From contig JAFQKB010000047.1 of the NCBI GenBank assembly GCA_017397125.1, forward strand, positions 36,732 through 100,731: a stretch of 64,000 nucleotides of DNA, given 5' to 3'. The stretch comes from Clostridia bacterium. GTDB lineage: Bacteria > Bacillota > Clostridia > Oscillospirales > Acutalibacteraceae. This document shows positions 1-12,887 of this stretch, piece after piece (position 1 is the first letter of the stretch; every line of letters begins with the position of its first letter). The position numbers were made by a program, and so were the translations under genes. The notes under the pieces were generated by a model, which was not told the DNA's origin, did no database searches, and saw only the letters and a list, made by a program, of their open reading frames with translations.

Positions 1-839
1 TCAATCGTATGCTCTCTCTGTACGATTGCGGGTCTGTTTTTAAGATCGTGACCGCCGTCGCTGCACTTGAAAACGGTTTTTCTATCGCTCAAACCTATGA
101 CTGTGCCGGTGGCATGACGGTGCAGAATACGGTGTTTCACTGCCACCAACGATTAGGGCATCAGACGCTAACTATGGACGAAGCTTTTGCGAAATCCTGC
201 AATCTGTATTTTATACAGTTGGCGGCACAACTAGGCGCTGAAAAGCTGCTGGAAACAGCCGAAAAGCTGGGACTGACCGATGCAATAGAACTGGCTGATT
301 CATTAATAGCGCCACGGGCGGTTCTACCAACTAAAACAGAATTAGTCGCACCGGCAGCTCTGGCAAACCTCTCCTTCGGACAGGGCAAATTGCTGGTTTC
401 TCCACTCCATATAGCCCGTATGACGGCCGTGATGGCTGCTAATGGCACATTGCAGAATTTGCAACTAATATCCGGCACCTTAACAAACGAGGATGGTTTC
501 ACGCAGGCAGAGAAAAGGGGAGGGGAGACGGTTATTACTGCCGCAACCATTTCAGCCCTCAGGCGCATGATGGAGCTGGTAGTAACCGACGGTACCGGCA
601 CACGGGCACAGCCGGATAATATCACAGCAGCCGGAAAGACCGGCACCGCACAGACGGGACAATACAATAACGGACAACCGGTTGTGCAGAGCTGGTTCAC
701 CGGTTATTTCCCGGCTGACAATCCTCAATACGTCGTGACCATCCTTGCAGAAGACGCCGAAACCACCGACGCCGATGCCACGGGACTGTTTTGTGAAATT
801 TCTAACAAATTGACCGAGTTGAAAAGGAACGGAGGTTAA
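1..839 (+). CDS. Penicillin-binding protein, transpeptidase domain (SpoVD/FtsI/PBP2 class); 5' end lies outside the window
   Basis: The ORF is open to base 1. SxxK (GSVFK) sits at the window edge, with SxN (KSCN) and KTG (KTGTA) motifs downstream. GC is about 50% by hand count, lower than the bulk chromosome. Confidence 0.85.
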   Translation, partial: NRMLSLYDCGSVFKIVTAVAALENGFSIAQTYDCAGGMTVQNTVFHCHQRLGHQTLTMDEAFAKSCNLYFIQLAAQLGAEKLLETAEKLGLTDAIELADSLIAPRAVLPTKTELVAPAALANLSFGQGKLLVSPLHIARMTAVMAANGTLQNLQLISGTLTNEDGFTQAEKRGGETVITAATISALRRMMELVVTDGTGTRAQPDNITAAGKTGTAQTGQYNNGQPVVQSWFTGYFPADNPQYVVTILAEDAETTDADATGLFCEISNKLTELKRNGG

Positions 840-851
840 TCCGTTCCTTTT
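822..851. terminator. Perfect 12-bp inverted repeat with a 6-nt loop at the convergent PBP/integrase gene ends; candidate bidirectional terminator or recombination site
   Basis: AAAAGGAACGGA-GGTTAA-TCCGTTCCTTTT. It spans both stop codons (PBP stop at 837-839, integrase stop at 836-838). Confidence 0.5.
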
Positions 852-1864
852 TGGTCCTGATTATTTGAATTTTCCGCATTATTATCTCTGGGGGCGGGAG
901 GATTAACCCGGGCTAAGGGGTTTGCGCTGGCCGCCTTACGCAGTTGTTCGTTGGATGTGTGTGTATAGATCTCGGTGGTGCCAAGGTTTCTATGGCCCAG
1001 CATCTCTTTGAGAACCAACAGATCTACACCGCCTTGCTGATACATCAGTGTAGCCGCAGTATGGCGGAGCTTATGAGCCGAAAATTCCTCTGCGCCGCTG
1101 ACCTGCTTGAGATAGCCTTTAACAATGTAATGCACGCCCTGCAGGCTGATACGGTCCTTAGTATGACTGTAGAATAGTGCTTTCTTATCCTTAGTGCCGT
1201 CCAACGGACGCTTGGGTAAATAGGCCGCTAAAGCCTTTTGACAGGCCTCGTTCAGATATAGAATTCGCTCTTTATTGCCTTTACCGATCACACGCAACGT
1301 GTTATCGTCGCGAACGTCCGTTCGATTTAGGCCTGCCAATTCGGCACGACGCAGTCCACAATTTAACAATAATGTAATGATACAGAAGTCCCGTTCAGCG
1401 TATTTGCCTTGTCCGGCCAGCTGCAACAGCTGTATGGATTGGTCATAGGTAAGGTGTTTGGGCATACGGGACGGCAATTTAGGAGAACTTAAATTTTTGG
1501 CGGGATTTTCAGGGATTTTATGACTGATCTCGGTCAGATAATGAAAGAACTGCCGTAGACTGGAAACCTTGCGAGCACGGGTAATGTTAGAGTTATCGCG
1601 TTCGCTTTTAGAATAATTCATAAACTCAAACAAGTCTGCCAGTGTAACTGTACGTAATAAATCTAAATCAACCAAGCGAATATCCGGTAAGGAATCAGGA
1701 GAATATTTACAAATGCCGCGCTGAATTAAAAGAAAACGGAAGAAAGTGCGCAGATCAATAAAATATCCGTTAACCGTATTGGCAGAGCGGCCTTTGACGG
1801 TCTCCATATAACCCAGATATTCACGCAGAATAGGCGGACATTCTGCTAAATACTTAGAATTCAC
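836..1864 (-). CDS. Tyrosine recombinase / phage integrase family (XerC/XerD-like)
   Basis: 342 aa. An N-terminal SAM-like core-binding domain is followed by the catalytic motifs ...NCGLRRAEL..., HKLRHTAAT and LGHRNLGTTEIYTH. GTG start with the SD sequence GGGAGGGG. It begins 35 nt downstream of the phage small TM ORF on the same strand. Confidence 0.9.
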   Translation of the reverse strand: MNSKYLAECPPILREYLGYMETVKGRSANTVNGYFIDLRTFFRFLLIQRGICKYSPDSLPDIRLVDLDLLRTVTLADLFEFMNYSKSERDNSNITRARKVSSLRQFFHYLTEISHKIPENPAKNLSSPKLPSRMPKHLTYDQSIQLLQLAGQGKYAERDFCIITLLLNCGLRRAELAGLNRTDVRDDNTLRVIGKGNKERILYLNEACQKALAAYLPKRPLDGTKDKKALFYSHTKDRISLQGVHYIVKGYLKQVSGAEEFSAHKLRHTAATLMYQQGGVDLLVLKEMLGHRNLGTTEIYTHTSNEQLRKAASANPLARVNPPAPRDNNAENSNNQDQKGTD

Positions 1865-1899
1865 TGTTTCCCCTCCCTTTTACTGCATTAAATATGCGT

Positions 1900-2052
1900 T
1901 TATTTGTCAAGATATTTTTGTAAAATTATTCGAATATTTTCCAATTCACGTGGGACAAGAATTAGAAAGCGAACAAAAACAAAAAACAAAAACACACCTA
2001 AAGCAATACCAAAAATAGCTAACACACCAGTAAAAAATGCAAATTCTTCCAT
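1900..2052 (-). CDS. Small single-pass membrane protein (50 aa), not in the ORF track; candidate phage lysis or membrane protein
   Basis: Hand translation: MEEFAFFTGVLAIFGIALGVFLFFVFVRFLILVPRELENIRIILQKYLDK. The ATG lies 2 nt after the VP4 stop (TAATTATG), suggesting translational coupling. It has one long hydrophobic helix and a charged tail. Confidence 0.5.
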   Translation of the reverse strand: MEEFAFFTGVLAIFGIALGVFLFFVFVRFLILVPRELENIRIILQKYLDK

Positions 2053-2054
2053 AA

Positions 2055-3056
2055 TTACAACGACCTTTCAAGTGATTTAATTGAGAGCATTTTATTGTTC
2101 TCTTTAACACAAAGATACTCAGGCTCTTGTAGGTCGGTTTGGGATAACTGCAATTCACTACTATTCATAGCCGTTTCTTTCCGTCTATCTTTAATTACTT
2201 GCAGATCTTCGTTGTGTTCTACATCGAATATGCGATCAAAGTATTTCGGCGGTTTACAGCGAATTGGAGTACCTTTACCATTAGTTACAATTACCTGGTC
2301 ATAATTATAAATGAAATCCTCGTTTTCGTCAAGGTAAGAACGAGCAATACCAGGGCGACGGCTACACCGAGTAAATTCCGGCTCTATACCTTGCTCTTCA
2401 TAAAATGTAGCATCTTCGCCTTTGTGCTTTTTAAGCATATACCGGGCAACATATGCAGCTGTTTCAAAGGAAAAGTCAGTTACCAAAACAAAACCTTTTT
2501 TCCAGGTCTTTTCAAGTAGGGGAGAGCGGTAATAAGCATAACCGTTAGCATACTTTTCCAAGACAAGGTCTGGTAAAGGACAGTTAAACAAAATCAAATG
2601 ATAATGCGGTCTCATATTTTTAGGACCATACTCACCACAAGCAAAGAAACGAATGTTATCATTGTCAAACTGTCTTTTAGCATTGGTGCGCAATCTCTTC
2701 ATAAATGCCTTTAAATCGTCCGGCAAGAGGGTCATTACAGTTTCTAGGTCTGTAACCTCACCAGTCTCTTCATCAACTGTAAAATGCTCACGGAGGGGCA
2801 CAAAAGCATCATCATATGTGAGAGTAACAAAATAGTTATGTTTCCATTGCTTGGCTTCTAGGGCACAACGGACGGCCCATTGCCGAGAATACTCCAAACG
2901 GCATCCAACACATTGTCCACAAGGAAGCGACAATTTTTCGGCACCGATAGACTTTAAGTGTTCCGGGTCCGGCTCCTTTTTAAGAAATACTATTTTCATT
3001 TTTCCAGTCTCCGGGTTTTTAATTCCGTAGGCTGTAAGAGGGTGATAACAGGGCAT
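2055..3056 (-). CDS. Microviridae replication initiation protein (VP4 / gpA-like rolling-circle endonuclease)
   Basis: 333 aa. Motifs: MPCYHP..., CGQCVGCRLEYSRQWA, FVTLTYDD, GEYGPKNMRPHYHLILFN (HUH-type) and AAYVARYMLKK (catalytic Tyr motif). These are typical of gokushovirus VP4. Confidence 0.92.
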   Translation of the reverse strand: MPCYHPLTAYGIKNPETGKMKIVFLKKEPDPEHLKSIGAEKLSLPCGQCVGCRLEYSRQWAVRCALEAKQWKHNYFVTLTYDDAFVPLREHFTVDEETGEVTDLETVMTLLPDDLKAFMKRLRTNAKRQFDNDNIRFFACGEYGPKNMRPHYHLILFNCPLPDLVLEKYANGYAYYRSPLLEKTWKKGFVLVTDFSFETAAYVARYMLKKHKGEDATFYEEQGIEPEFTRCSRRPGIARSYLDENEDFIYNYDQVIVTNGKGTPIRCKPPKYFDRIFDVEHNEDLQVIKDRRKETAMNSSELQLSQTDLQEPEYLCVKENNKMLSIKSLERSL

Positions 3057-3103
3057 AAACTACATCCTTTCCACACTTCGTGTGTCAGTGGGGACAGTTA
3101 AGG

Positions 3104-3298
3104 TCAAGTAGAACTGTCCCCACGCCCCCGGAAAATACCAGGGTAAACATCAGTTACCGGAGCACTATCCATATACTCCATAGCATCATTTACTTTCATT
3201 TGCAACTCATACGAATTATTAGTACCATAAACATTTTCAATGGTTGCAAGAGCAGTAGCGATCTGCAACAACTCACCATAAGACAAATTAATTAACAT
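3104..3298 (-). CDS. Hypothetical phage protein (64 aa from the internal ATG)
   Basis: MLINLSYGELLQIATALATIENVYG... is preceded by AGGAG. The track ORF 3104..3349 extends upstream into a hairpin. Confidence 0.4.
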   Translation of the reverse strand: MLINLSYGELLQIATALATIENVYGTNNSYELQMKVNDAMEYMDSAPVTDVYPGIFRGRGDSST

Positions 3299-3495
3299 AA
3301 AATCACTCCTATTTTTTTGCGTACACGCGCGAAACGCGCGCGCACGCATATTTTTTTAAGTACATTGTCTAAGTAACTACTGCGGCGCATTAACAAGCAC
3401 TTATCGTAAATACTGCAGCGCCGCATTGAAGCTTCTACGTTTTTATTTGCCTTCCGGTCTCTCCATTTTACACAGGCTGTCAAGGGTAAATGCAC
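3292..3495 (-). CDS. Possible very basic 67-aa ORF (GTG start) running through the hairpin-rich region; coding status uncertain
   Basis: The translation is Arg/Lys-rich. Its stop overlaps the ATG of the 64-aa ORF (TTATGTTAA). However, it coincides with strong palindromes that may be non-coding. Confidence 0.25.
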   Translation of the reverse strand: MHLPLTACVKWRDRKANKNVEASMRRCSIYDKCLLMRRSSYLDNVLKKICVRARFARVRKKIGVILC

Positions 3496-3577
3496 GCCTT
3501 ACGGCGCCCTTGACATTGCCTGTGTAGGCATGTCGATGCCCGAAAGGGCAAAATAAAATTTAAAGGAGATATGCAAC
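3299..3577. other. Hairpin-dense region inside the microvirus; candidate origin, complementary-strand priming or regulatory region
   Basis: A GC-rich stem-loop at 3319-3347 is flanked by T runs. TACTGC(AGC)GCCGCATT occurs twice (3378-3391 and 3411-3427), with an 8-bp complementarity between TGCGGCGC and GCGCCGCA. A long imperfect inverted repeat pairs CACAGGCTGTCAAGGG (3471-3486) with CCCTTGACATTGCCTGTG (3507-3524). Further hairpins: GGCAT-GTCG-ATGCC (3527-3540) and GCCC-GAAA-GGGC (3538-3549). Confidence 0.55.
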
Positions 3578-3682
3578 ATGAGAAAGAACGCAAACTACAC
3601 AATCCTAAAAGCTACACAAATAGGCGAAACAGAAATCGTACTCGGCTTTTGTCCAACAGCAGCAGCACAATTGGTCAGTTAA
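3578..3682 (+). CDS. Possible 34-aa ORF antisense to all other phage genes
   Basis: AAAGGAGA lies 8 nt upstream of the ATG. Translation: MRKNANYTILKATQIGETEIVLGFCPTAAAQLVS. No convincing promoter was found. Confidence 0.2.
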   Translation: MRKNANYTILKATQIGETEIVLGFCPTAAAQLVS

Positions 3683-3915
3683 TGTAACTGGTAAACAGGG
3701 TTTAGAACAACGTCGTTAAAGATATCACGCCGGGGGATAGGGGATGTTAAATACCTAACTATAGCATACAAATCATCCAACTCATTTTCTATAAGCGCTA
3801 TACGAGAAAGACAATCTTGTTTACAACCAGGTATTTCACCATCTAGCAATTCAGTCTTTCGCTTTTCAAGCAACGCAATGGATTTCAAATATTCATCTAA
3901 TACGCTTACTGACAT
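3679..3915 (-). CDS. Hypothetical phage protein (78 aa)
   Basis: Track ORF on the phage coding strand. It overlaps the VP2 3' end by 23 nt. No recognisable motif and a weak RBS. Confidence 0.4.
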   Translation of the reverse strand: MSVSVLDEYLKSIALLEKRKTELLDGEIPGCKQDCLSRIALIENELDDLYAIVRYLTSPIPRRDIFNDVVLNPVYQLH

Positions 3916-4669
3916 TATAACTTTTAGAATAACTACTAGAAGCAGATTTCCTAGTTACAAAATTACCAGCAAAGCCAAGAGCACTAGAAAACAAGTTGTT
4001 AATCATATCAACAGCAGAAGATAAAACATTATTCAAAATAGATAAATCCGAACTTTTAGCAGCCGCCATACTACCTTTACTACCGGAAGAAGATACACCG
4101 GAAGCAGAAGAACCACCCGCAGCATAACCACTACCAGCGATACCAGCCGGAGAACTAGCACCACCTTGGGAATATGCTAAAATAGGGTTTAAACCAGCAG
4201 CTTGCATATCGGCTACAGCACGCTGATACGCAGTATTAGACATATGCGTTTGATACGCCATAGCATCATCCGCCATTTGCTTTTCAAACACCATAGCCTT
4301 TTCGGCACTACTCTGTTGAAATAAACGATCTAATTCGGCTTGACTTGCTGAAAAATCCATTGCTTTTTGATTAGCATCTGTTTGGAACTGCATTTGCCTT
4401 TCAGCAGCATCACGCTCCGCCTGCATAGCAGACTCAGCATTAGAGACAAATGCTGTTTTGAAACCATCAATCAACGTACCGAGCCAATCAAAACCACCAG
4501 ACTGCGAAACATCACTCTGTACAGGCTGAATATCACTAACCAATCCACTAGCACTAGAACGATTAGTAGAAGTAATCATAGGATTAAACTGAGTACTAGT
4601 ATCAACCATACCAGTCTGCAAATTAGGACTAAACTGCTTATTGGTAAGATTATGACCAATAATATCCAT
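3893..4669 (-). CDS. Microviridae DNA pilot / minor capsid protein VP2 (gpH-like)
   Basis: 258 aa. It has the conserved SNTAYQRAVADMQAAGLNPILAY motif and a Gly/Ser-rich C-terminal half. Confidence 0.85.
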   Translation of the reverse strand: MDIIGHNLTNKQFSPNLQTGMVDTSTQFNPMITSTNRSSASGLVSDIQPVQSDVSQSGGFDWLGTLIDGFKTAFVSNAESAMQAERDAAERQMQFQTDANQKAMDFSASQAELDRLFQQSSAEKAMVFEKQMADDAMAYQTHMSNTAYQRAVADMQAAGLNPILAYSQGGASSPAGIAGSGYAAGGSSASGVSSSGSKGSMAAAKSSDLSILNNVLSSAVDMINNLFSSALGFAGNFVTRKSASSSYSKSYNVSKRIR

Positions 4670-4680
4670 AAAACCACTCC

Positions 4681-6351
4681 TTAAAAGTGGTCAATAAGAC
4701 CAGGAACAGAGTACAGAGGCATAGGTCTAGTCCAAATGGCCTTAAAATAGAAATTACCGAGGAACTGATCTTCTACATCACTAGAGACAGCCAAGGTGCG
4801 ATCAACATTTACATAGGTCTCACGCATAAACTCAGCATCTCCAACAAAACTTGCAGTACCAGTTGACGGCAGCTCGAAATAATCAGCATAATGCCAACTA
4901 TCGAGAGACTGAGCGTAATTACTACGAAAAGCACCACATACACGAGAGGGCTTATAGCGGTAATCCGCCCAGGCTTCCTGGTAGCCGAACGCTTCATCAT
5001 CATATTGCGTACCAGTTGCTACAACCTCCTTTTTCAACACAGCCTGCTCGCCAATATGGGCAAGAGACGGCCAGTAATAATCAAAGCGCCGAGTACGAGA
5101 CCAAAAACGTTCAATGCCCTGCTGATAAGTATGATCGGTACGCACACAAGCAACACCAATAAGAAAACCATGCTCTACAAAAGACTTGGTAAATGCACTA
5201 GACACATCCGTAGTCAGCGAAAAAGCAGCGGTATTACCCTGTGGGCTAGTATCAGTAGTCTGGCTAGTCTGCAATACCTGGTCTACATTAATGGGAATAC
5301 GTTTACCACCGAGGTACTCCGGACGCTGTAGACGGCTATCAGGGGAGGTAACGCCAAAATGCGCTTTGAGGAGTTCATAGTACCTGGTTCCTCCTCTGGC
5401 GTCCTTTTCTAGCAAGCGCTGAATTTGGAACGCCTGGCGCAGCTGATTAATAGTACCAGCTTCAACATCACCTAACTGCACATAAAGGTTATCCGGATAG
5501 AAACCATTAATACTAGAATTAATGGTCGCATTACCACCGGAAACAAGAGTACCACCAGGAGAAAAAGCAAGATTTTGAGCAGAACTCAAAGTACCATTAT
5601 ACTTGAAATGAATAGGTGCACTAGGCAATTCGTGTCTATCTTCGCTTGCCGTTACAGGGAGGTTAGCACTAAACAGCGGCACATCAGTAGCCGGGGCTTT
5701 CTGCGGGGCAGGGAGTACAGACGTAAAATAATCGTGAGTCTTAGATACCGGAAGAACACCACCGCCATACAAAGCAGAGGTATAAGGGATTTGCAGACGA
5801 GCACCAGCACTATAATCACGCCGACGACCAGTAACATTTGCATCACTCTTTACAAAGTCGGCAGGGGACATATAATTCTGGTCACGGAAAAACTCATTCC
5901 AAATCGCAACATAAGCACGGAAGGGAAGGTGACTTACAGAAATATTCTCCGTGTCAGTAGGTAGGCCCATATAATCAGCAAGAGAACCTTTATTCCATCC
6001 AGAAGCGGGGGCGGTAATCTGCGGCACATTATATTCGGTAGGCTGTGCCCAATAGGAACTATTGTTCTCTCCGTTAAACTCTTTCCAATGCTCCCATACA
6101 AGACGATTAGGAACAAAGAAAAAGTACGTATCCATATAGGCATTATCCATAACGGGAAAAATGGGAGTAGACATACGCACCAAAGATGCAACGTCCATAG
6201 TAACAGTATCACCGGGCAAAATTTCATCCACATAAATAGGGATTAGTTCGCCAGTATTAAAGGTAGTCAACAGACGAGTAGAGCGATCAAATCTCGAACG
6301 CTCAATATCTACATGAGGGACTTGAGAAAAATGACTTTCGTTGTTTCTCAT
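4681..6351 (-). CDS. Microviridae major capsid protein VP1 (Phage_F family)
   Basis: 556 aa. The N-terminus FSQVPHVDIERSRFDRS..LTTFNTGELIPIYVDEILPGDT...PVMDNAYMDTYFFFVPNRLVWEHW is the canonical gokushovirus capsid signature. Confidence 0.95.
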   Translation of the reverse strand: MRNNESHFSQVPHVDIERSRFDRSTRLLTTFNTGELIPIYVDEILPGDTVTMDVASLVRMSTPIFPVMDNAYMDTYFFFVPNRLVWEHWKEFNGENNSSYWAQPTEYNVPQITAPASGWNKGSLADYMGLPTDTENISVSHLPFRAYVAIWNEFFRDQNYMSPADFVKSDANVTGRRRDYSAGARLQIPYTSALYGGGVLPVSKTHDYFTSVLPAPQKAPATDVPLFSANLPVTASEDRHELPSAPIHFKYNGTLSSAQNLAFSPGGTLVSGGNATINSSINGFYPDNLYVQLGDVEAGTINQLRQAFQIQRLLEKDARGGTRYYELLKAHFGVTSPDSRLQRPEYLGGKRIPINVDQVLQTSQTTDTSPQGNTAAFSLTTDVSSAFTKSFVEHGFLIGVACVRTDHTYQQGIERFWSRTRRFDYYWPSLAHIGEQAVLKKEVVATGTQYDDEAFGYQEAWADYRYKPSRVCGAFRSNYAQSLDSWHYADYFELPSTGTASFVGDAEFMRETYVNVDRTLAVSSDVEDQFLGNFYFKAIWTRPMPLYSVPGLIDHF

Positions 6352-6836
6352 TCAGTAACATCCTCCTTTACAGGATCAACAGAAGGCTCAGTCTTTTTAA
6401 CAAAAGAAGCAAGTTTTTCATCCAATTTACCATTAGCAACTGCATCAATAAACTCATTCACATTGTTATTGAAACAAGCCTTTACATCAGCGGACAAAGT
6501 ATCAAACTTATTCTCAATATCAAGAATAGCCTGGTGGGCCTCCGCCAGATTAGTGGGCATACCGACAACATCAATAAACTGGCCCATAGTACGATGAAGC
6601 GCAGCTACATCGCCACGCTCATAACGAGCAATAATGTTATATACCAAGGTTTCCGGCAAAGACGCCTGGACAAACTCATTCAAAGGGTCTCGTCCGGTCT
6701 CTCGGAGAACTCTAACACCATTTTCGATAGTTTCCTCGAAGATGGGTGCAGTACCATCACCAATCGGCCACGGAATAGTTTTTGGACGATTAAAACGATG
6801 GTGGATAATAATTTCTTGAACTTTACTCGCACTCAT
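6348..6836 (-). CDS. Internal scaffolding protein VP3-like
   Basis: 162 aa. It lies immediately upstream of VP1 and overlaps it by 4 nt. Size and position match gokushovirus VP3. The call rests on synteny more than on motifs. Confidence 0.6.
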   Translation of the reverse strand: MSASKVQEIIIHHRFNRPKTIPWPIGDGTAPIFEETIENGVRVLRETGRDPLNEFVQASLPETLVYNIIARYERGDVAALHRTMGQFIDVVGMPTNLAEAHQAILDIENKFDTLSADVKACFNNNVNEFIDAVANGKLDEKLASFVKKTEPSVDPVKEDVTE

Positions 6837-7110
6837 TTACATCCTCCTTTTTTACAGGAAATTCAACAAGATTAGATTTAACCTCAAAAACGTCACGATA
6901 CGCACAAACAAACCCAATATCACTTACAATGATACCAGTCAATTCATCATAAGTACCAAGACGCCACAATTCGAGGTCTTTAGCAATATGCGCAGTCTCC
7001 GGATGATTAACAAAACCGGAAAAGTCACGGATAGCAATAGCATCATTAACAACGGCCATCGGTGACCAATAGGACGATTTTACATCCTTAACAGCATACA
7101 AATTCGTCAC
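6823..7110 (-). CDS. Gokushovirus VP5-like non-structural protein
   Basis: 95 aa, GTG start. The pattern LYAVKDVKS..W.PMAVVNDAIAIRDF...VN......AKDLELWRLGTYDELTG resembles the conserved small non-structural protein found upstream of VP3 in gokushoviruses. Confidence 0.6.
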   Translation of the reverse strand: MTNLYAVKDVKSSYWSPMAVVNDAIAIRDFSGFVNHPETAHIAKDLELWRLGTYDELTGIIVSDIGFVCAYRDVFEVKSNLVEFPVKKEDVNECE

Positions 7111-7226
7111 AGCCTTGTACCTCCTCTCATTACACCACCAGCAAGGTTGATTTTCTTTGTCTTTTTCGCAGTATGCGAAAACACTCTGCCGTCCTTGACG
7201 GGTTTAACGGGTGCTCGTTTTGCCAT
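7107..7226 (-). CDS. Small basic DNA-binding-type protein (39 aa, RGGxRL C-terminus), not in the ORF track
   Basis: Hand translation: MAKRAPVKPVKDGRVFSHTAKKTKKINLAGGVMRGGTRL. The SD sequence AAGGAGG lies 7 nt upstream. Its stop overlaps the GTG of the next gene (GTGA). It resembles the small Arg/Lys-rich proteins of gokushoviruses. Confidence 0.65.
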   Translation of the reverse strand: MAKRAPVKPVKDGRVFSHTAKKTKKINLAGGVMRGGTRL

Positions 7227-7250
7227 CTGCAAAACCTCCTTAAAATAAAA

Positions 7251-7281
7251 TTAGGTGAAGCACATTTTGTGCCTCACCTAA
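7251..7281 (-). terminator. 13-bp stem hairpin followed by a T-rich tract on the minus strand
   Basis: TTAGGTGAAGCAC-ATTTT-GTGCCTCACCTAA, with one mismatch. On the minus strand it is followed by ATTTTATTTTA. It lies between the host gene end (7374) and the first phage gene. Confidence 0.5.
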
Positions 7282-7309
7282 AGTATACTAAATATTAATT
7301 TAGTATAGT
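7282..7309. repeat. 28-bp near-perfect palindrome at the right phage/host junction
   Basis: AGTATACTAAAT-ATTA-ATTTAGTATAGT, with 12-bp arms and one mismatch. Confidence 0.7.
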
Positions 7310-7373
7310 TATGTCGAGAATTATGACAGGATAAAATTAATGAAATAAGATGTGTTCCCTATCGTAATACGGA

Positions 7374-8654
7374 TTATAAATTCAGGCATCCGGCGTCCAG
7401 CATAGATTGTGCAGCCAGTAAGACGCCGATTTTTCCGCTGTGATAGTTAAGCCCACCCTGCATATAGGCTGCATACGGCTCTCTCAGCGGTGCATCCGCA
7501 GACAATTCAATGGATGCACCCATAGTAAACGCTCCGGCGGCCATAATCACCGGACTGGTGTAGCCCGGCATATCCCAGGGCTCCGGCACCACATAAGCAT
7601 CCACCGGTGCGCCTTTCTGCATACCTTGGCAAAATGCGATCAATCCGTCGGAGTTGCGCAGCATAACCGTCTGGATAATATCCGCACGCTTCTCATGTAC
7701 CGTCGGAGACACATCGTAGCCCAACTCGCTAAACAATGCAGCGGCATACACTGCGGTTTTGAGCGCCTCCCCTACCACGTGAGGGGCTTGGAACAAGCCC
7801 ATATATAAGGAACGGTTGTGCCCCAGAGAGGCACCTACCTCACGGCCCAGACCGGGTGTGGTCATACGATAGGAACAAAGCTCAATGCATTCTTTTGTGC
7901 CGCAGAGATAGCCGCCGTTTTCTGCAATGCCGCCACCGGGATTCTTGATCAAAGAGCCCGCAATCAGATCGACGCCCACCTCGTTGGGTTCACGGGTCTC
8001 TACAAACTCGCCGTAACAGTTGTCCACAAAGATGACAACGTCCTCGCGGATGGCGCGCACCGCCTTGACAATGCGGTCGATCCACTGGATGCTCAGGCTG
8101 GGACGGGTGCAATAGCCCCGAGATCGCTGAATATGTACCATTTTAATGCGAGGATTCTTTTCCAAAGCGGCCTGGATACCTTCCAAATCGGGAGTTTCGG
8201 TGTCCTTTAGCAGGTCTACCTGCTCATAAGATACGCCGTACTCAGCTAAAGAGCCGGCAGAAGGCTCGGCGTGACCGATCACCTTCTCTAACGTGTCATA
8301 CGGTGCACCTGTGGCGGCCAGCAGCGTGTCGCCCGGCCGCAAAATGCCGAACAGAGCTATGGTAATGGCGTGGGTGCCCGACACAATGCTGTGCCGGATG
8401 AGAGCATCCTCCGCCCCCATTATGTCAGCCAAAATCTCATCCAGCGCATCTCTACCCTGATCGCCGTAGCCGTATCCGGTAGTGGGATTAAAATGCGTTT
8501 CACTGACACGGTGACGGATATACGCCGACAGCACTTTCTGCTGATTGAACTCGGTAATACGTTCTATCTCAGCAAAAGCTACAGCGGCCGTCTGCTCTGC
8601 TTTATCAGAAAGCTGTTCCAGGCGCGGATCAACCTTAAAAAATGCGGTGTTCAT
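7374..8654 (-). CDS. PLP-dependent methionine gamma-lyase family protein (YnbB / aluminium-resistance-protein-like)
   Basis: 426 aa. The N-terminus (...NQQKVLSAYIRHRVSETHFNPTTGYGYGDQGRD...) and overall length are typical of this family. Confidence 0.8.
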   Translation of the reverse strand: MNTAFFKVDPRLEQLSDKAEQTAAVAFAEIERITEFNQQKVLSAYIRHRVSETHFNPTTGYGYGDQGRDALDEILADIMGAEDALIRHSIVSGTHAITIALFGILRPGDTLLAATGAPYDTLEKVIGHAEPSAGSLAEYGVSYEQVDLLKDTETPDLEGIQAALEKNPRIKMVHIQRSRGYCTRPSLSIQWIDRIVKAVRAIREDVVIFVDNCYGEFVETREPNEVGVDLIAGSLIKNPGGGIAENGGYLCGTKECIELCSYRMTTPGLGREVGASLGHNRSLYMGLFQAPHVVGEALKTAVYAAALFSELGYDVSPTVHEKRADIIQTVMLRNSDGLIAFCQGMQKGAPVDAYVVPEPWDMPGYTSPVIMAAGAFTMGASIELSADAPLREPYAAYMQGGLNYHSGKIGVLLAAQSMLDAGCLNL

Positions 8655-8657
8655 AGT

Positions 8658-9401
8658 TTACGGATTCCTCCCGGTCTTTTCCAGTTCCGCCCAGCCATCG
8701 CAGGGGCGAAATCCTAGTTTTTGATAGAGTTTAGCGGCGTTTTTATTGGCCGGTAATATGTAAAGCAACTTGCCTTTACATCTAGAAAGCAGCGAATTTA
8801 TGCACTTTCCTGCCAATCCTTGCCGCCGAAATGCCGGATCGGTGGCCACCTGGCCCAACAGACAAGCATCCCCAGTCTCCGCTACGGTCATAGCGGTGCT
8901 CACGACCTTATTATCATTCATAACGCAGGCGATCCGGCTGCATTCATGCCGTATTCGATGAGATACGTCGGGATACCAGGCGTTGAATGATGAAATACCC
9001 TCAAAATGGGCCTGCAGCAAGGTGTACACCGACGGCAGATAGGGGCTTTCGCATATATCCGTTGGCGGCTGTGGTGTTTCGCCACAAAACCTCAGCACAT
9101 CCCCTACCCTACCTTGCCAATCGCCTGTGTTCAGCAGCATATTTCCGGTATCCGCCGAGCAGTGCAGGTGGATTATGTCGGGATTCATAGCTAAAAATAC
9201 AATCCATTCATCTGTTACCGTATGGGGGCAGTGTAACACGCCGCACCCATCCATAACCGATAACAAGGAACCCTCTCCATCGGTATAATACTGGATGAAA
9301 GGCACGTCTATCCCGTAGGCACGCTTGAGTCCTACGATCCGTACCAACACCTCATTATCCGCATTAACAGGAAAATCAGCCTCAGTTGCCAGGCGGATCA
9401 T
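8658..9401 (-). CDS. GNAT family N-acetyltransferase
   Basis: The C-terminal acetyl-CoA motif is QVATDPAFRRQGLAGKCI...LYQKLGF. The start was moved to the MIRLATEADF ATG, which overlaps the upstream stop (ATGA). Confidence 0.65.
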   Translation of the reverse strand: MIRLATEADFPVNADNEVLVRIVGLKRAYGIDVPFIQYYTDGEGSLLSVMDGCGVLHCPHTVTDEWIVFLAMNPDIIHLHCSADTGNMLLNTGDWQGRVGDVLRFCGETPQPPTDICESPYLPSVYTLLQAHFEGISSFNAWYPDVSHRIRHECSRIACVMNDNKVVSTAMTVAETGDACLLGQVATDPAFRRQGLAGKCINSLLSRCKGKLLYILPANKNAAKLYQKLGFRPCDGWAELEKTGRNP

Positions 9402-10420: not shown

Positions 10421-11442
10421 ACACAAGCACCTCCCTTTTTAATGTAGGCGGCCATCAGATCGCCCACAGCCGCCACGTCCCGCACGTCTACTACCTCAAT
10501 AGGTGTGTGCATATACCGCTGCGGGATGGATAAAAGGGCGCTGGGAACGCCCAACAGAGCGTTGGTTATGTGGTCAGCATCGGTGCCGGTGCGACCGCCC
10601 ATCACCTCTGTCTGATAAGGGATACTGCACTCATCAGCCAGCGAGAGCAGTCGGTCAGACATACGGCCGCTGAGAATGGGAGAAATACCGATCATGACGC
10701 CCTTGCCCAGCTCGCCGCAGGAATGCGGATCAGCATCCGGAGTCAGAGCAAAACTCACGTCGGTAACAATGGCCTCGTCCGGCTGCAGACGGCGCACCGC
10801 CGGTGCGGCACCGCGGCACCCCAGCTCCTCCTGCACGCAAAAGGCCACCGCCACATTCACGTCAACCGGCTCACCCAAAGTTCGCAAACAGTGAAGGATG
10901 GCGGCCATACCGGCCCGGTCATCCAGTGCCTTTGCCGTAACAGCGTTTTCGTTCAACTCGCAAAAGGAGGGTGCAAAAGTGACACGTGTGCCCAAGGGAA
11001 TCTGCGCCTTTGCCTCCTCGGCGGTCAGGCCCAGATCAATGCCTCGTTTAGACAGCTCCGGAAGTTCGCCATCCTTGCCGGCGATGTGGGGCGGCGTAGA
11101 GCAAAACACACCGCGCAGAGGGCCGCCAGGAGCGTGTACCAGTACCTCCTGGGCGGTCAGCACACGTCCGTCAATGCCACCGGCGGGAGCGACGTACATA
11201 AAGCCAGCGCTATCAAAATAGGTAACAAGAAACCCAATCTCATCCAGGTGGGCCTCCAGCATAATGGTGGGGGCATCCGGGTTGGCCGCCTTGCGTACGC
11301 CCAACACACTGCCCATTGCATCCACCTCGATGGTGTCCACCAGGGGGCTGAGCAATTCTTTTGCCACCTCGGTTATCTCAGGCATACCAGCCACACCGGC
11401 CGCCTGACACAGACGGGAAAGATCACGTTTGATTTCGTTCAC
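10417..11442 (-). CDS. M42 family metallopeptidase (second paralogue)
   Basis: Motifs: EAHLDEIGFLV, DDRAGMAA and VQEELGCRGA. Confidence 0.85.
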   Translation of the reverse strand: MNEIKRDLSRLCQAAGVAGMPEITEVAKELLSPLVDTIEVDAMGSVLGVRKAANPDAPTIMLEAHLDEIGFLVTYFDSAGFMYVAPAGGIDGRVLTAQEVLVHAPGGPLRGVFCSTPPHIAGKDGELPELSKRGIDLGLTAEEAKAQIPLGTRVTFAPSFCELNENAVTAKALDDRAGMAAILHCLRTLGEPVDVNVAVAFCVQEELGCRGAAPAVRRLQPDEAIVTDVSFALTPDADPHSCGELGKGVMIGISPILSGRMSDRLLSLADECSIPYQTEVMGGRTGTDADHITNALLGVPSALLSIPQRYMHTPIEVVDVRDVAAVGDLMAAYIKKGGACV

Positions 11443-11463
11443 AGCAGTATTTCCTCTCTCTTC

Positions 11464-12840
11464 TTAATCGTGCAGTGCATTGACCAGGTCCTTAAAATGG
11501 TTGCCGCGCACTTCAAAGTTTTTGTACATATCAAAGCTGGCGCTGGCCGGTGACATAAACACAACGTCGCCATCACCGGCGATTTCTGCTGCGGCAGCCA
11601 CCGCTTCCTCCATATTGGCAACCCGGGTGATGGGCAGATCCGAGTACGTGCGGATAGCTGTTTCGATCGCATCCGCAGTAGCCCCCATCAAAATGGCGTG
11701 CTTGACCGTGTCCACGGCTACCTGCCCCAGCGGATCGTAGGGAATGTGCTTGTCGTAGCCACCGGCGATGAGGATCACCTTGTCCGGGAATGCCACCAGA
11801 CCGGCAATGGTCCGGGACGGACTGGAGCCGATGGAATCGTTGTACCAACGAACCCCACGTCGCTCGCGTACCAACTCGCAACGGTGGGCAACGCCGCCAA
11901 AGGCACGGGCGAACCGGCGAATGGACTCCGGAGAAGCAATACCCCAAACGGCCGCAATAGCGGCCATATAATTCTCAACGTTATGGAAACCGGGTATACG
12001 GATATCATCGACGTGCATAACCACCGTATCCACGCCCTTGTCCGTTACCACGATCTCTCCGGCATCATTCAACCAACACCCATGAGACACCGGTTGCCGA
12101 CGGGAGAACTGCCATACAGATCCAGGACAATCGGCGGCAAAACCCGCCGTCACGGCATTATCCAGGTTCAATACAGCGCGGTCGTGTGTTTGTTGGTGTA
12201 ATACCAGGTTGTGCTTGGCGTCGATGTATTCCTGCATATCCGTGTGCCAGTCCAGGTGGTTTGGTGCTACGTTGGTGACCACCGCCACGTGGGGCGACTG
12301 CTTCATACCGGTCAGCTGAAAGCTGGACAGTTCCACCACCGCCGCATCGGTGGCACGAATGTCGTGAACGTACGGCAGTAGAGCACGACCGATATTGCCA
12401 CCCACAAAGGTTTTGACGCCGGCGGCGTCCAACAGACCCGCCACAATGGTGGTGGTGGTGGTTTTTCCGTCCGAGCCGGTCACCGCATAAATAGGTGCCT
12501 CGCACAGATCGAAGAAAAGTTCCATCTCCGAGGTGACGGTGATACCGCGTGCTCGCGCCGCCTCGAACTGCGGCAGATACGGCTTCATACCGGGCGTGCG
12601 GAGAATCAAATCTACATCTAAATCATCCAGATAGGTGTCCCCCAGCTGCAGTTGCGCACCGGATGCCATCAACTCCTGCGCCGTTTCTCCCAGTTCCTGT
12701 GCACTGCGCCGATCGCAGGCGATAACCTGCGCTCCGGCCTGCAAAAATTGGTGTATGACCGGAACGTTATTGTTGCCTATGCCGCATATCGCTACGCGTT
12801 TTCCGCAAATGCTTTCGAAAAAAGAGCGTGCCTTTGTCAT
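11464..12840 (-). CDS. murD: UDP-N-acetylmuramoylalanine--D-glutamate ligase
   Basis: 458 aa with the Mur ligase P-loop GSDGKTTTTTIV. The overall layout is MurD-like. Confidence 0.9.
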   Translation of the reverse strand: MTKARSFFESICGKRVAICGIGNNNVPVIHQFLQAGAQVIACDRRSAQELGETAQELMASGAQLQLGDTYLDDLDVDLILRTPGMKPYLPQFEAARARGITVTSEMELFFDLCEAPIYAVTGSDGKTTTTTIVAGLLDAAGVKTFVGGNIGRALLPYVHDIRATDAAVVELSSFQLTGMKQSPHVAVVTNVAPNHLDWHTDMQEYIDAKHNLVLHQQTHDRAVLNLDNAVTAGFAADCPGSVWQFSRRQPVSHGCWLNDAGEIVVTDKGVDTVVMHVDDIRIPGFHNVENYMAAIAAVWGIASPESIRRFARAFGGVAHRCELVRERRGVRWYNDSIGSSPSRTIAGLVAFPDKVILIAGGYDKHIPYDPLGQVAVDTVKHAILMGATADAIETAIRTYSDLPITRVANMEEAVAAAAEIAGDGDVVFMSPASASFDMYKNFEVRGNHFKDLVNALHD

Positions 12841-12869
12841 AGCCGAACACCTCTGTGATCAAAAATTTA

Positions 12870-12887
12870 GTATACTAATTAGTATAC
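12870..12887. repeat. Perfect 18-bp palindrome in the murD / DUF2628 divergent promoter region; candidate operator
   Basis: GTATAC-TAATTA-GTATAC. It shares the AGTATACTAA core with the 28-bp palindrome at 7282. Confidence 0.6.

Follow-up and report, generated by a model that had tools for sequence, protein, structure and literature searches.

How does a virus that carries no recombinase come to lie in the chromosome of a Gram-positive gut bacterium, and which enzyme would have put it there? The question is raised by a 64-kb stretch of DNA (the window), with an overall GC content of 55%, from a metagenome-assembled genome (MAG) of a Clostridia bacterium, a member of the Acutalibacteraceae (Oscillospirales). 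A first-pass annotation had placed a complete gokushovirus-like genome, made up of ten co-oriented open reading frames (ORFs) at positions 836-7330, in this Firmicute chromosome. The integrated genome itself is borne out here, with all of the families VP1 to VP5 matched and the attachment (att) junctions resolved. Our analysis points, with a probability of roughly 0.8, to an intact ~5.4-kb gokushovirus-like microvirus prophage at ~1889-7295 that has no recombinase of its own and that entered by mimicry of a dif site, in dependence on the Xer recombination of its host. The best reading of the element is as one of the integrative mobile elements that exploit Xer (IMEX): it lacks a recombinase, its phage attachment site (attP) mimics dif, it is flanked by a dif-like and a hybrid site, and a host Xer protein would be the catalyst.

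The viral genes

The viral ORFs were assigned by profile searches against Pfam and PHROGs, to which ten ORFs were submitted, including that at 836-1864. Nine of these are viral. They are closely packed between ~1.9 and ~7.3 kb, all on the minus strand, and in the order of transcription they encode a basic protein of 41 residues, VP5, VP3, VP1, VP2, two small ORFs, VP4 and a hydrophobic protein of 50 residues (Table 1). No recombinase was found among the nine in either Pfam or PHROGs. The tenth ORF, 836-1864, encodes a host tyrosine recombinase and has to be subtracted from the earlier count; likewise, the prophage does lie inside the limits first given for it, but its true ends are the att sites at ~1889-7295, 5,400 bp apart. 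The first-pass annotation had named similarity of VP1 and VP4 to Microviridae as a point to be checked, and both proteins gave overwhelming matches (VP1 to Phage_F, 3e-164; VP4 to phrog_942, 1e-112). The peptide strings that it quoted are present in the ORF translations, and the absence of frameshifts that it recorded holds for the window copy. A contrast in GC content is real but smaller than the 42-50% against 57-67% first estimated, with 41.7% for the prophage and 56.5% for the remaining window; the flanking genes for a YnbB-type enzyme and a penicillin-binding protein (PBP) have 54.3% and 51.3%, respectively.

The gokushovirus complement of VP2, VP3, VP4 and VP5 was matched in full, in a genome of 5.4 kb, and the only PDB entries that VP1 matched at E ≤ 1e-3 were those of PhiEC6098 (8DES, 1.8e-144) and SpV4 (9CGM, 3.8e-117), both of which are gokushoviruses (PMC11281519). 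At the same threshold VP1 had no PDB match to the F protein of phiX174, G4 or alpha3, and no family of the phiX D (external scaffold) or G (spike) protein was found among the ten ORFs submitted to Pfam and PHROGs. At the nucleotide level the prophage resembles ~1,160 microvirus records at 65-70% identity. The nearest GenBank phage is MG945286.1, from elk faeces, with 61% identity in VP1, and the nearest records are unclassified 'Microviridae sp.' with VP1 identities of at most 61%. Gene content and the VP1 matches together argue for a gokushovirus-like assignment (Gokushovirinae sensu lato, or 'Family 3' of Kirchberger 2022).

Attachment sites and ownership of the recombinase

Syntenic loci were retrieved from species-representative genomes with the flanking YnbB-type gene and were compared by tblastn. 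The three closest relatives among them, L021 (an Acutalibacteraceae MAG), L009 and L020, have the order YnbB-recombinase-PBP without a phage, with recombinases that share 87%, 79% and 63% identity, respectively, with that of the window; more empty loci (L249 and L250-L255) were reached via orthologues of the recombinase. The comparison with relatives lacking the insertion, which the first-pass annotation had proposed, accordingly yields the order YnbB-site-xer-PBP in all of these loci. The site in question is a sequence of 28 bp, with 11-bp inverted arms around a 6-bp centre (11-6-11), just upstream of the recombinase ribosome-binding site, and the host sites read ACTATACTAAA-TTAATA-TTTA(A/G)T(A/G)(T/C)AGT, with departures in L009 and L020 (Table 1). 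The 11-6-11 layout is kept in L021, L009, L020, L249 and L250 as well as in two further loci discussed below, L101 and L007; in L020 and L101 the two arms form a perfect palindrome. In the window species the host site reads ACTATACTAAA-TTAATA-TTTAATGCAGT and lies 5-10 nt upstream of the xer ribosome-binding site.

Both ends of the prophage carry versions of this site, attL being a reconstituted full dif-like site and attR a hybrid (Table 1); 3' of attR come AAAAGGGAGGGG and then the GTG start of xer. The right half of attR matches the arms of the empty sites in L249, L250 and L021, and its left half is of the same type as the attP of a free circular relative, L090. The full 28-mer of attL occurs once in the 64 kb, with 0 occurrences expected by chance, and the shared core ATATTTA(R)T is found only at the two prophage ends.

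L090 is a Logan contig of 5,525 bp with a 30-nt terminal overlap, which corresponds to a 5,495-nt circle; its VP1 shares 86% identity with that of the window, its VP4 is split over the contig ends, and the window prophage is collinear with it. Its single intergenic region reads TTGACAAATTAA-CACATA-TTTAGTATACT-TTAGGTGAGGCACAAAATGTGCTTCACCTAA, including the hairpin, and equals the left half of the window attR joined to the right half of attL. The crossover must therefore fall inside the core of 7 bp, which makes the prophage a unit of 5,400 bp. As compared with the host dif-like sites, the L090 attP is TGACAAATTAA-CACATA-TTTAGTATACT. For the window phage, excision is predicted to join ~1896 to ~7288, giving an attP junction of TTGACAAATAAACGCATA followed by TTTAGTATACTTTAGGTG, and the restored empty site, joining YnbB to xer, is predicted to be ACTATACTAAATTAATATTTAATGCAGT. 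When the empty locus L249 is set against the occupied locus L098, 19 bp of the empty site are found at both ends of the prophage. The phage attP thus mimics the host dif-like site, and the relationship between attP, the bacterial site attB, attL and attR is exact. The att sites were recognised by comparison with the empty sites and the free genome; a generic direct-repeat search over positions 500-8000 did not reveal them, a core of just 7 bp being all that the two ends share.

A separate half-site, AGTATACTAAA / TTTAGTATACT, was seen at window positions 12849-12876 and at L092:3504, L021:5810, L098:20179 and L009:5760. In these five genomes it lies in a low-GC intergenic region upstream of a Mur-ligase-family gene, and it may be only a -10-like promoter element (TATACT) and not a recombinase site.

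Gut metagenomes are rich in microviruses and MAG bins are error-prone, a caveat made in PMC9239249, and the junctions might on these grounds be suspected to be assembly chimeras of a free microvirus and a bacterial contig. We find this scarcely credible. The exact YnbB protein together with the exact VP1 is present on four other contigs from independent assemblies, of different samples and by different assemblers, all of which have the same insertion at the same coordinates; three of the four span both junctions, and identity to the window over phage and flanks is 99.6-99.97%. Related phages lie at the orthologous site in other species, and the junctions are precise attL and attR hybrids of an attP and an attB that were each observed independently. 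Since the same insertion recurs in four independent assemblies and its junctions are precise attP by attB hybrids, it is not an assembly chimera, and the check on chimeric junctions listed in the first-pass annotation is answered at the assembly level.

The product of 836-1864 has the catalytic motifs GLRRAE, GKGNKER, HKLRHT, LGHRNL and EIYTH; its best PDB match is to E. coli XerD (3e-31), and XerA and XerH are matched as well. The gene adjoins the phage genes in the same orientation, its GC content of 45.6% lies between those of phage and host, and PHROGs labels it 'integrase', all of which could be taken to mean that it is the phage's own integrase, within a temperate microvirus of ~6.5 kb whose target would be the 3' end of the PBP gene. 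This is nevertheless very improbable. At least five phage-free relatives have an orthologue at the same locus, and the gene is absent from the free circle L090 (~5.5 kb). The phage in L098 is inverted with respect to the recombinase, and another element separates the two in L101. The low GC content is common to all orthologues, which lie ~5 GC points under their flanks even at empty sites, and the att sites put the gene outside the element. Thousands of orthologues, 76-99% identical, are found on chromosomal contigs of up to 558 kb. Because the gene is syntenic in phage-free relatives, has its orthologues on large chromosomal contigs and is low in GC at empty sites too, the recombinase belongs to the host and lies outside the phage.

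A phage-encoded integrase was also sought via phage records, where tblastn gave best identities of 41-47% on small 'Bacteriophage sp.' faecal contigs; this candidate was ruled out by the empty-site loci. Two human-faecal 'Bacteriophage sp.' contigs, L001 and L002 (MT837697.1 and MT837041.1), carry xer-like homologues of ~44% identity with microvirus genes absent, and are therefore uninformative on microviruses. They may be bacterial fragments, or fragments of other mobile elements, within a virome data set.

On the far side of the recombinase, a PF00905 Transpeptidase gene occupies the position equivalent to that of the window PBP gene in L003, L006, L091, L092 and L250. The PBP and xer genes are convergent, and their stop codons overlap at 836-839. 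On the YnbB side, L009 has an extra ORF (11295-11903) between YnbB and the dif-like site, which by eye looks like an S-adenosylmethionine-dependent methyltransferase gene; species therefore differ in the DNA that immediately borders the site.

Within the prophage, the 41-residue basic protein is presumably a DNA-binding packaging protein of VP8/J-like type. The 50-residue hydrophobic protein may have a lysis or membrane role, and a small ORF stands at the position of its gene in L090 (62 aa), L091 (58 aa), L092 (59 aa) and L098 (78 aa). The hairpin that adjoins the phage att arm has counterparts in L090, L008, L091, L092 and L183; it looks like a terminator or, alternatively, a candidate origin.

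Table 1. Features of the prophage locus (window coordinates), with the empty sites and integrated relatives used for comparison
Feature	Position	Strand	Evidence or description
Class-B penicillin-binding protein (transpeptidase) gene, 3' part, host flank	9..839	+	NCBIfam pbp2/SpoVD-like matches
Hairpin, 16 pairs, common to converging PBP and xer genes	818..855	.	Bidirectional terminator-like
Host Xer-like tyrosine recombinase, 342 aa, GTG start	836..1864	-	Pfam Phage_integrase 4e-33 and SAM-like N domain
attR, hybrid	1882..1909	-	TGACAAATAAA-CGCATA-TTTAATGCAGT; degenerate phage left arm and phage centre, host xer-proximal arm
Microvirus prophage unit, 5,400 bp	1889..7295	-	Limits ambiguous within 7-bp core ATATTTA (1889-1895, 7289-7295)
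Hydrophobic predicted membrane protein, 50 aa, last gene before attP	1900..2052	-	From sequence; no family in Pfam or PHROGs
VP4, rolling-circle replication initiator	2055..3056	-	REP_ORF2-G2P PF23343 4.5e-19; phrog_942 1e-112
Small conserved ORF, 81 aa (64 aa as called in sister contigs)	3104..3349	-	Homologues in L008 (39%) and L183
Variable accessory region: orf78 (3679-3915) and non-coding DNA	3350..3915	-	Comparison with L090, L003 and L006
VP2, DNA pilot protein	3893..4669	-	phrog_34374 1.6e-28 and 17 more pilot/minor-protein families
VP1, major capsid protein, 556 aa	4681..6351	-	Phage_F PF02305 3e-164, 501/501 profile positions; phrog_514 1.7e-213
VP3, internal scaffolding protein	6348..6836	-	Chlamy_scaf 3.2e-23
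VP5-like protein	6823..7110	-	Phage_ORF5 4.3e-15; phrog_1670
Small basic protein, 41 aa, ending ...MRGGTRL	7107..7232	-	phrog_10695 5e-7; kept in most relatives
Hairpin, 14-bp stem followed by T-run, adjoining phage att arm	7251..7281	-	z = -7.4; position kept in all relatives
attL, reconstituted full dif-like site	7282..7309	-	ACTATACTAAA-TTAATA-TTTAGTATACT; host left arm and centre, phage right arm
Met_gamma_lyase/YnbB-family pyridoxal phosphate enzyme gene, host flank	7374..8654	-	NCBIfam
Empty site, L249			ACTATACTAAA, centre TTAATA, TTTAATGTAGT
Empty site, L250			ACTATACTAAA, centre TTAATA, TTTAATATAGT
Empty site, L021			ACTATACTAAA, centre TTAATA, TTTAATATAGA
Empty site, L009			ACTATACTAAA, centre TAAATA, TTTAGTTTAGT
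Empty site, L020			ACTAAACAAAA, centre TGAATA, TTTTGTTTAGT
Integrated relative, L091			VP1 75%
Integrated relative, L092			VP1 67%
Integrated relative, L008 (IMG/VR)			VP1 76%
Integrated relative, L183			VP1 64%
Integrated relative, L098, inverted with respect to xer			VP1 56%
Integrated relative, L101 (GCA_054272015.1, JAZLYX010000035.1)			VP1 59%

Relatives at the same site and a proposed route of entry

Integrated relatives were traced from VP1 homologues on long contigs. At least six related microviruses, with VP1 ~56-77% identical, lie at the orthologous xer-adjacent site in other hosts (Table 1). The attP centre of the inverted phage, GATTAA, fits the host centre in the opposite sense (TATTAA), and the (C)ATA centres of the phages in the window orientation fit the host TTAATA. 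The few centre bases beside the good phage arm would thus appear to set the orientation of integration, given that the host arms are near-palindromic. Scans of IMG/VR and Joint Genome Institute metagenomes with VP4, VP1 and a VP1 alignment returned mostly distant microviruses (VP1 at most 58% identical) without the attP motif; L008 and L183 were the useful finds. L093, a contig of 5,230 bp with the L092 phage, was considered as an excised circle and rejected: its ends do not overlap, and it runs out in host junction sequence, as a fragment of an integrated copy does.

Other elements are found at the site. L101:1426-12977 is a tandem array in which xer is followed by a dif site, ATTATACAAAA-CATTTA-TTTTGTATAAT (2524-2551, a perfect palindrome), an element of ~6.5 kb with weak Rep_OBD and Zot-related matches, a hybrid site at ~9083-9110, and the microvirus; the array resembles the IMEX arrays at the dif of Vibrio. 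In L007:1-6567 (IMG/VR UViG_3300007210_000116) an inovirus-like element, with a Zot-like ATPase (phrog_197, 6e-15) and a replication initiator (phrog_453, 7e-17), is found directly upstream of a dif-like site, ACTAAACAAAA-TGAATA-CTTTGTTTAGT, and a 60%-identical xer. Because this inovirus-like element adjoins both site and gene, the site seems to serve filamentous phages too. It is these and the gokushoviruses that are known among phages for their exploitation of Xer. The free circular genome MG945286.1 (L248) has TTTATACATAA-TGAATA-TTTTGTATAAT in an intergenic region (1177-1204), the right arm of which is identical to the host dif arm of L101.

A distant microvirus (VP1 58%) was seen on 23 contigs and is integrated in a different host (L094:8560-14770, also L095-L097), next to a microcompartment (BMC) operon. 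It has a 17-bp direct repeat, TTCTGATAGTTCTTATT, on both sides and lies immediately upstream of a gene for a tyrosine recombinase of 267 aa, and this locus may represent another target system linked to a recombinase, distinct from the first.

For the window prophage we propose the following route. The intergenic phage attP would offer one good arm, TTTAGTATACT, a centre that shares only its three arm-proximal nucleotides (ATA) with the host, and a degenerate arm, TGACAAATAAA. The host recombinase, most likely the product of the adjacent gene acting alone, would recombine the double-stranded replicative form of the phage with the 28-bp site, and strand exchange would begin at the good arm, since one arm is good and the other degenerate and the three matching centre bases lie beside the good one. 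Integration would leave attL as a fully competent dif, so that chromosome-dimer resolution is preserved, and attR as a weak hybrid beside xer, a poor substrate that would favour stable lysogeny. On this view the substrate would be the double-stranded form, and the prophage would have kept its ability to excise. It is quite likely that the adjacent Xer-like recombinase catalyses integration, and it probably does so alone, because the arms are near-palindromic and gene and site are linked, as in xerS/difSL.

Integration may also bear on phage transcription. The free attP overlaps a near-consensus promoter, TTGACA-17-TATACT, which in L090 matches TTGACA-17-TATAAT at 11 of 12 positions, with the -35 box TTGACA in the degenerate arm (window 1910-1905) and the -10 box TATACT inside the good arm. 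The arrangement TTGACA-17-TATA(C/G)T is kept in the window (as reconstructed), L092, L183 and L098, and the spacer is shorter in L008 and L091. Speculatively, integration would replace the -35 box and split the main phage promoter. That integration silences the promoter is at best a weak possibility, since the attL of the window still has a promoter-like match at 9 of 12 positions and the spacer of L008 and L091 is the shorter one.

The host site, the prophage and known Xer systems

The GC skew of the plus strand is negative from ~1.8 to ~56 kb of the window (~54 kb) and has the opposite sign beyond the site, as seen in the sister contig L006. A drop in skew across the site is present in L021, L009, L020, L091, L092, L098, L249 and L250 as well, and genes on both sides converge there. 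The position of the site suggests the replication terminus, and the 28-bp site is probably the chromosome-dimer-resolution site (dif) itself.

Several observations weigh against an intact prophage at a dif site, some touching the site and its recombinase and others the prophage. On the PBP side the skew switch can be followed for only 6-10 kb, and skew goes with gene orientation, for which reasons we regard the dif assignment as a well-founded inference and no more. In L020 the site is ~500 bp from xer, not directly upstream of it. Against the NCBIfam models the recombinase scores 212 bits for XerC, 188 for XerD, 169 for XerA (cut-off 220) and 135 for XerS (NF003462, cut-off 267, which places it outside XerS); each score is under the curated cut-off, and its assignment to dimer resolution therefore rests on context. 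Two of the five copies of the prophage have a frameshift, from either real decay or assembly error, which splits VP1 in L003 and VP3 in L005. The window copy is without the Amidase_3 gene of L090 and has an unrelated ORF of 78 aa in its place, and for the window's own species we found no contig free of the phage.

The sub-cut-off scores and the local nature of the terminus indication would fit a domesticated att hotspot that is not a dimer-resolution system, or a site on which XerCD from other loci would act; predictions for Clostridia generally give XerCD together with a B. subtilis-like dif (PMC3025954; PMC8136486). We consider such an arrangement rather improbable in view of the 11-6-11 architecture with its conserved centre, the strong conservation of site and gene across species (recombinases 60-99% identical) and the switch of skew and gene orientation at the site in all loci examined. 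Inovirus-like and microvirus elements, the two classic IMEX phage classes, both use the site, and xerS/difSL provides a precedent for gene-site linkage (PMC2731167). No second tyrosine recombinase was found within the 64-kb window.

The state of the prophage raises a different possibility, namely that it was integrated as described but is now fixed and non-inducible, whether cryptic or decaying. Every contig recovered for the window species is occupied and none is empty, and the split VP1 and VP3 genes could be signs of decay. The window copy lacks two segments present in other genomes of the group. One is the L090 gene for Amidase_3, a cell-wall hydrolase, which lies between VP2 and the small ORF (L090:4376-4945), and of which no remnant was found when the window prophage was compared with L090. 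The other is a segment of 157 bp at ~3671, which is present in L003 and L006 (L006:12682-12838) and absent from the window and L005; it comprises a GC-rich hairpin and part of a 70-aa reverse-strand ORF (MRKNANYTILK...) that is complete in L003 and L006. The degenerate left arm of attR should, moreover, disfavour excision. On the other hand, the window copy and that of L006 each have the nine viral ORFs intact, the copies differ by less than 0.5%, and the frameshifts are perhaps assembly errors; L091 and L092 also lack the amidase yet are intact, and L090, 86% identical in VP1, exists as a free circle. A fixed prophage thus seems unlikely, if still to be reckoned with, and present-day inducibility is uncertain because VP1 or VP3 is split in two copies and the amidase gene is lacking from the window copy.

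Two further observations touch on these points. MG945286.1 encodes a 'peptidase' at another position than the L090 amidase. A contig with a 98%-identical xer (L102:1-20, Logan SRR19897739) begins within the dif-like site, just 19 nt upstream of xer, a break of the kind expected if the sample mixes occupied and empty, or differently occupied, sites.

Microvirus prophages without an integrase have been described at the dif sites of Bacteroidetes (PMC3091885), Enterobacteriaceae (PMC7062461) and Alphaproteobacteria (PMC9753089). In Gram-positive isolates, namely Erysipelatoclostridium and Mammaliicoccus sciuri, complete microviral prophages were first reported by Kirchberger et al. (2022), together with further Gram-positive cases in MAG bins that they judged doubtful (PMC9239249). 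A Firmicute microvirus prophage is thus rare, as the first-pass annotation had it, but with a first report in 2022 it is neither undescribed nor unprecedented. By their description, the isolate prophages resemble that of the window as complete microvirus prophages of Gram-positive hosts, and here the class and order differ (PMC9239249). In distinction from the MAG cases of the same paper, the junctions here have been verified against empty sites and a free attP and in several assemblies made independently. The Enterogokushovirus prophages, which include PhiEC6098, have the same VP1-VP5 set, are integrase-less and dif-flanked, and were proposed to use host Xer (Kirchberger and Ochman 2020, PMC7062461); in the present case the host belongs to the Clostridia, the site is near-palindromic and upstream of an xer-like gene, in contrast to the asymmetric XerC/XerD dif, and relatives are integrated in either orientation. 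The Alpavirinae proviruses of Bacteroidetes are likewise integrase-less, with host XerCD proposed to act at dif-like sites, and belong to another lineage and host phylum (Krupovic and Forterre 2011, PMC3091885).

The near-palindromic arms of the site described here would suit one recombinase, as in the single-recombinase Xer systems XerS, XerH/difH, XerA and XerL. In the Bacteroidetes proviruses there is reportedly no recombinase gene linked to the site. The filamentous IMEXs of Vibrio (CTXphi, VGJphi and TLCphi) have an attP with one good and one degenerate arm and with centre homology confined to the side of the good arm. The attP pattern here is similar, as are the tandem arrays at dif and the inovirus-like element at the same site, whereas the virus family differs; nor is there any sign here of an attP folded from single-stranded DNA, the free attP of L090 being a direct duplex mimic. 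In the XerS/difSL system of streptococci and lactococci there is genetic linkage between the recombinase gene and a dif-like motif, as here (PMC2731167); the recombinase described here, however, is neither XerS nor XerA but closest to the XerC and XerD profiles, whose cut-offs it does not reach, and its site has 28 bp against the 31 bp of difSL. A further parallel is LME-1 and XerL-dif of Legionella (Nicholson et al. 2022, PMC9765430), in which an element that mimics dif brought to light a dif/Xer system near the terminus that had gone unnoticed, and in which a second site arises in modified form upon integration. LME-1 does not belong to the microviruses, has a proteobacterial host and is proven by experiment, whereas the present system is known from sequence alone.

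In the literature searched, coverage of which was incomplete, we found no description of microvirus prophages in Oscillospirales or Acutalibacteraceae or of an xer-linked dif in Clostridia; the features not found described there are the host lineage, the xer-linked near-palindromic target and integration in both orientations. Taken as a whole, it is about an even bet that Oscillospirales have a new xer-linked, probably single-recombinase dif, entered by a gut gokushovirus-like clade in either orientation as set by the attP centre, with splitting of the phage promoter and with sharing of the site by inovirus-like elements.

Gut microvirus genomes number in the thousands, for most of which no host is known, and the family has traditionally been viewed as in essence parasitic on Gram-negative bacteria. 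The present locus ties a gokushovirus-like clade to the Acutalibacteraceae and Oscillospirales, common gut Clostridia, by att sites defined at the base level in several hosts and several assemblies. It also points to what would be the host's own dimer-resolution site and recombinase, the latter otherwise annotated just as 'tyrosine-type recombinase/integrase', and the site is apparently a hotspot common to microviruses and filamentous phages. As the right arm of MG945286.1 is the dif arm of L101, the 28-bp motif might assign hosts to orphan microviruses, and would be a simple handle for doing so, as in the match of the MG945286.1 attP to the host lineage of L101. If our reading is true, a group of abundant, host-orphan gut microviruses would here for the first time be linked to Gram-positive Clostridia as hosts by verified junctions.

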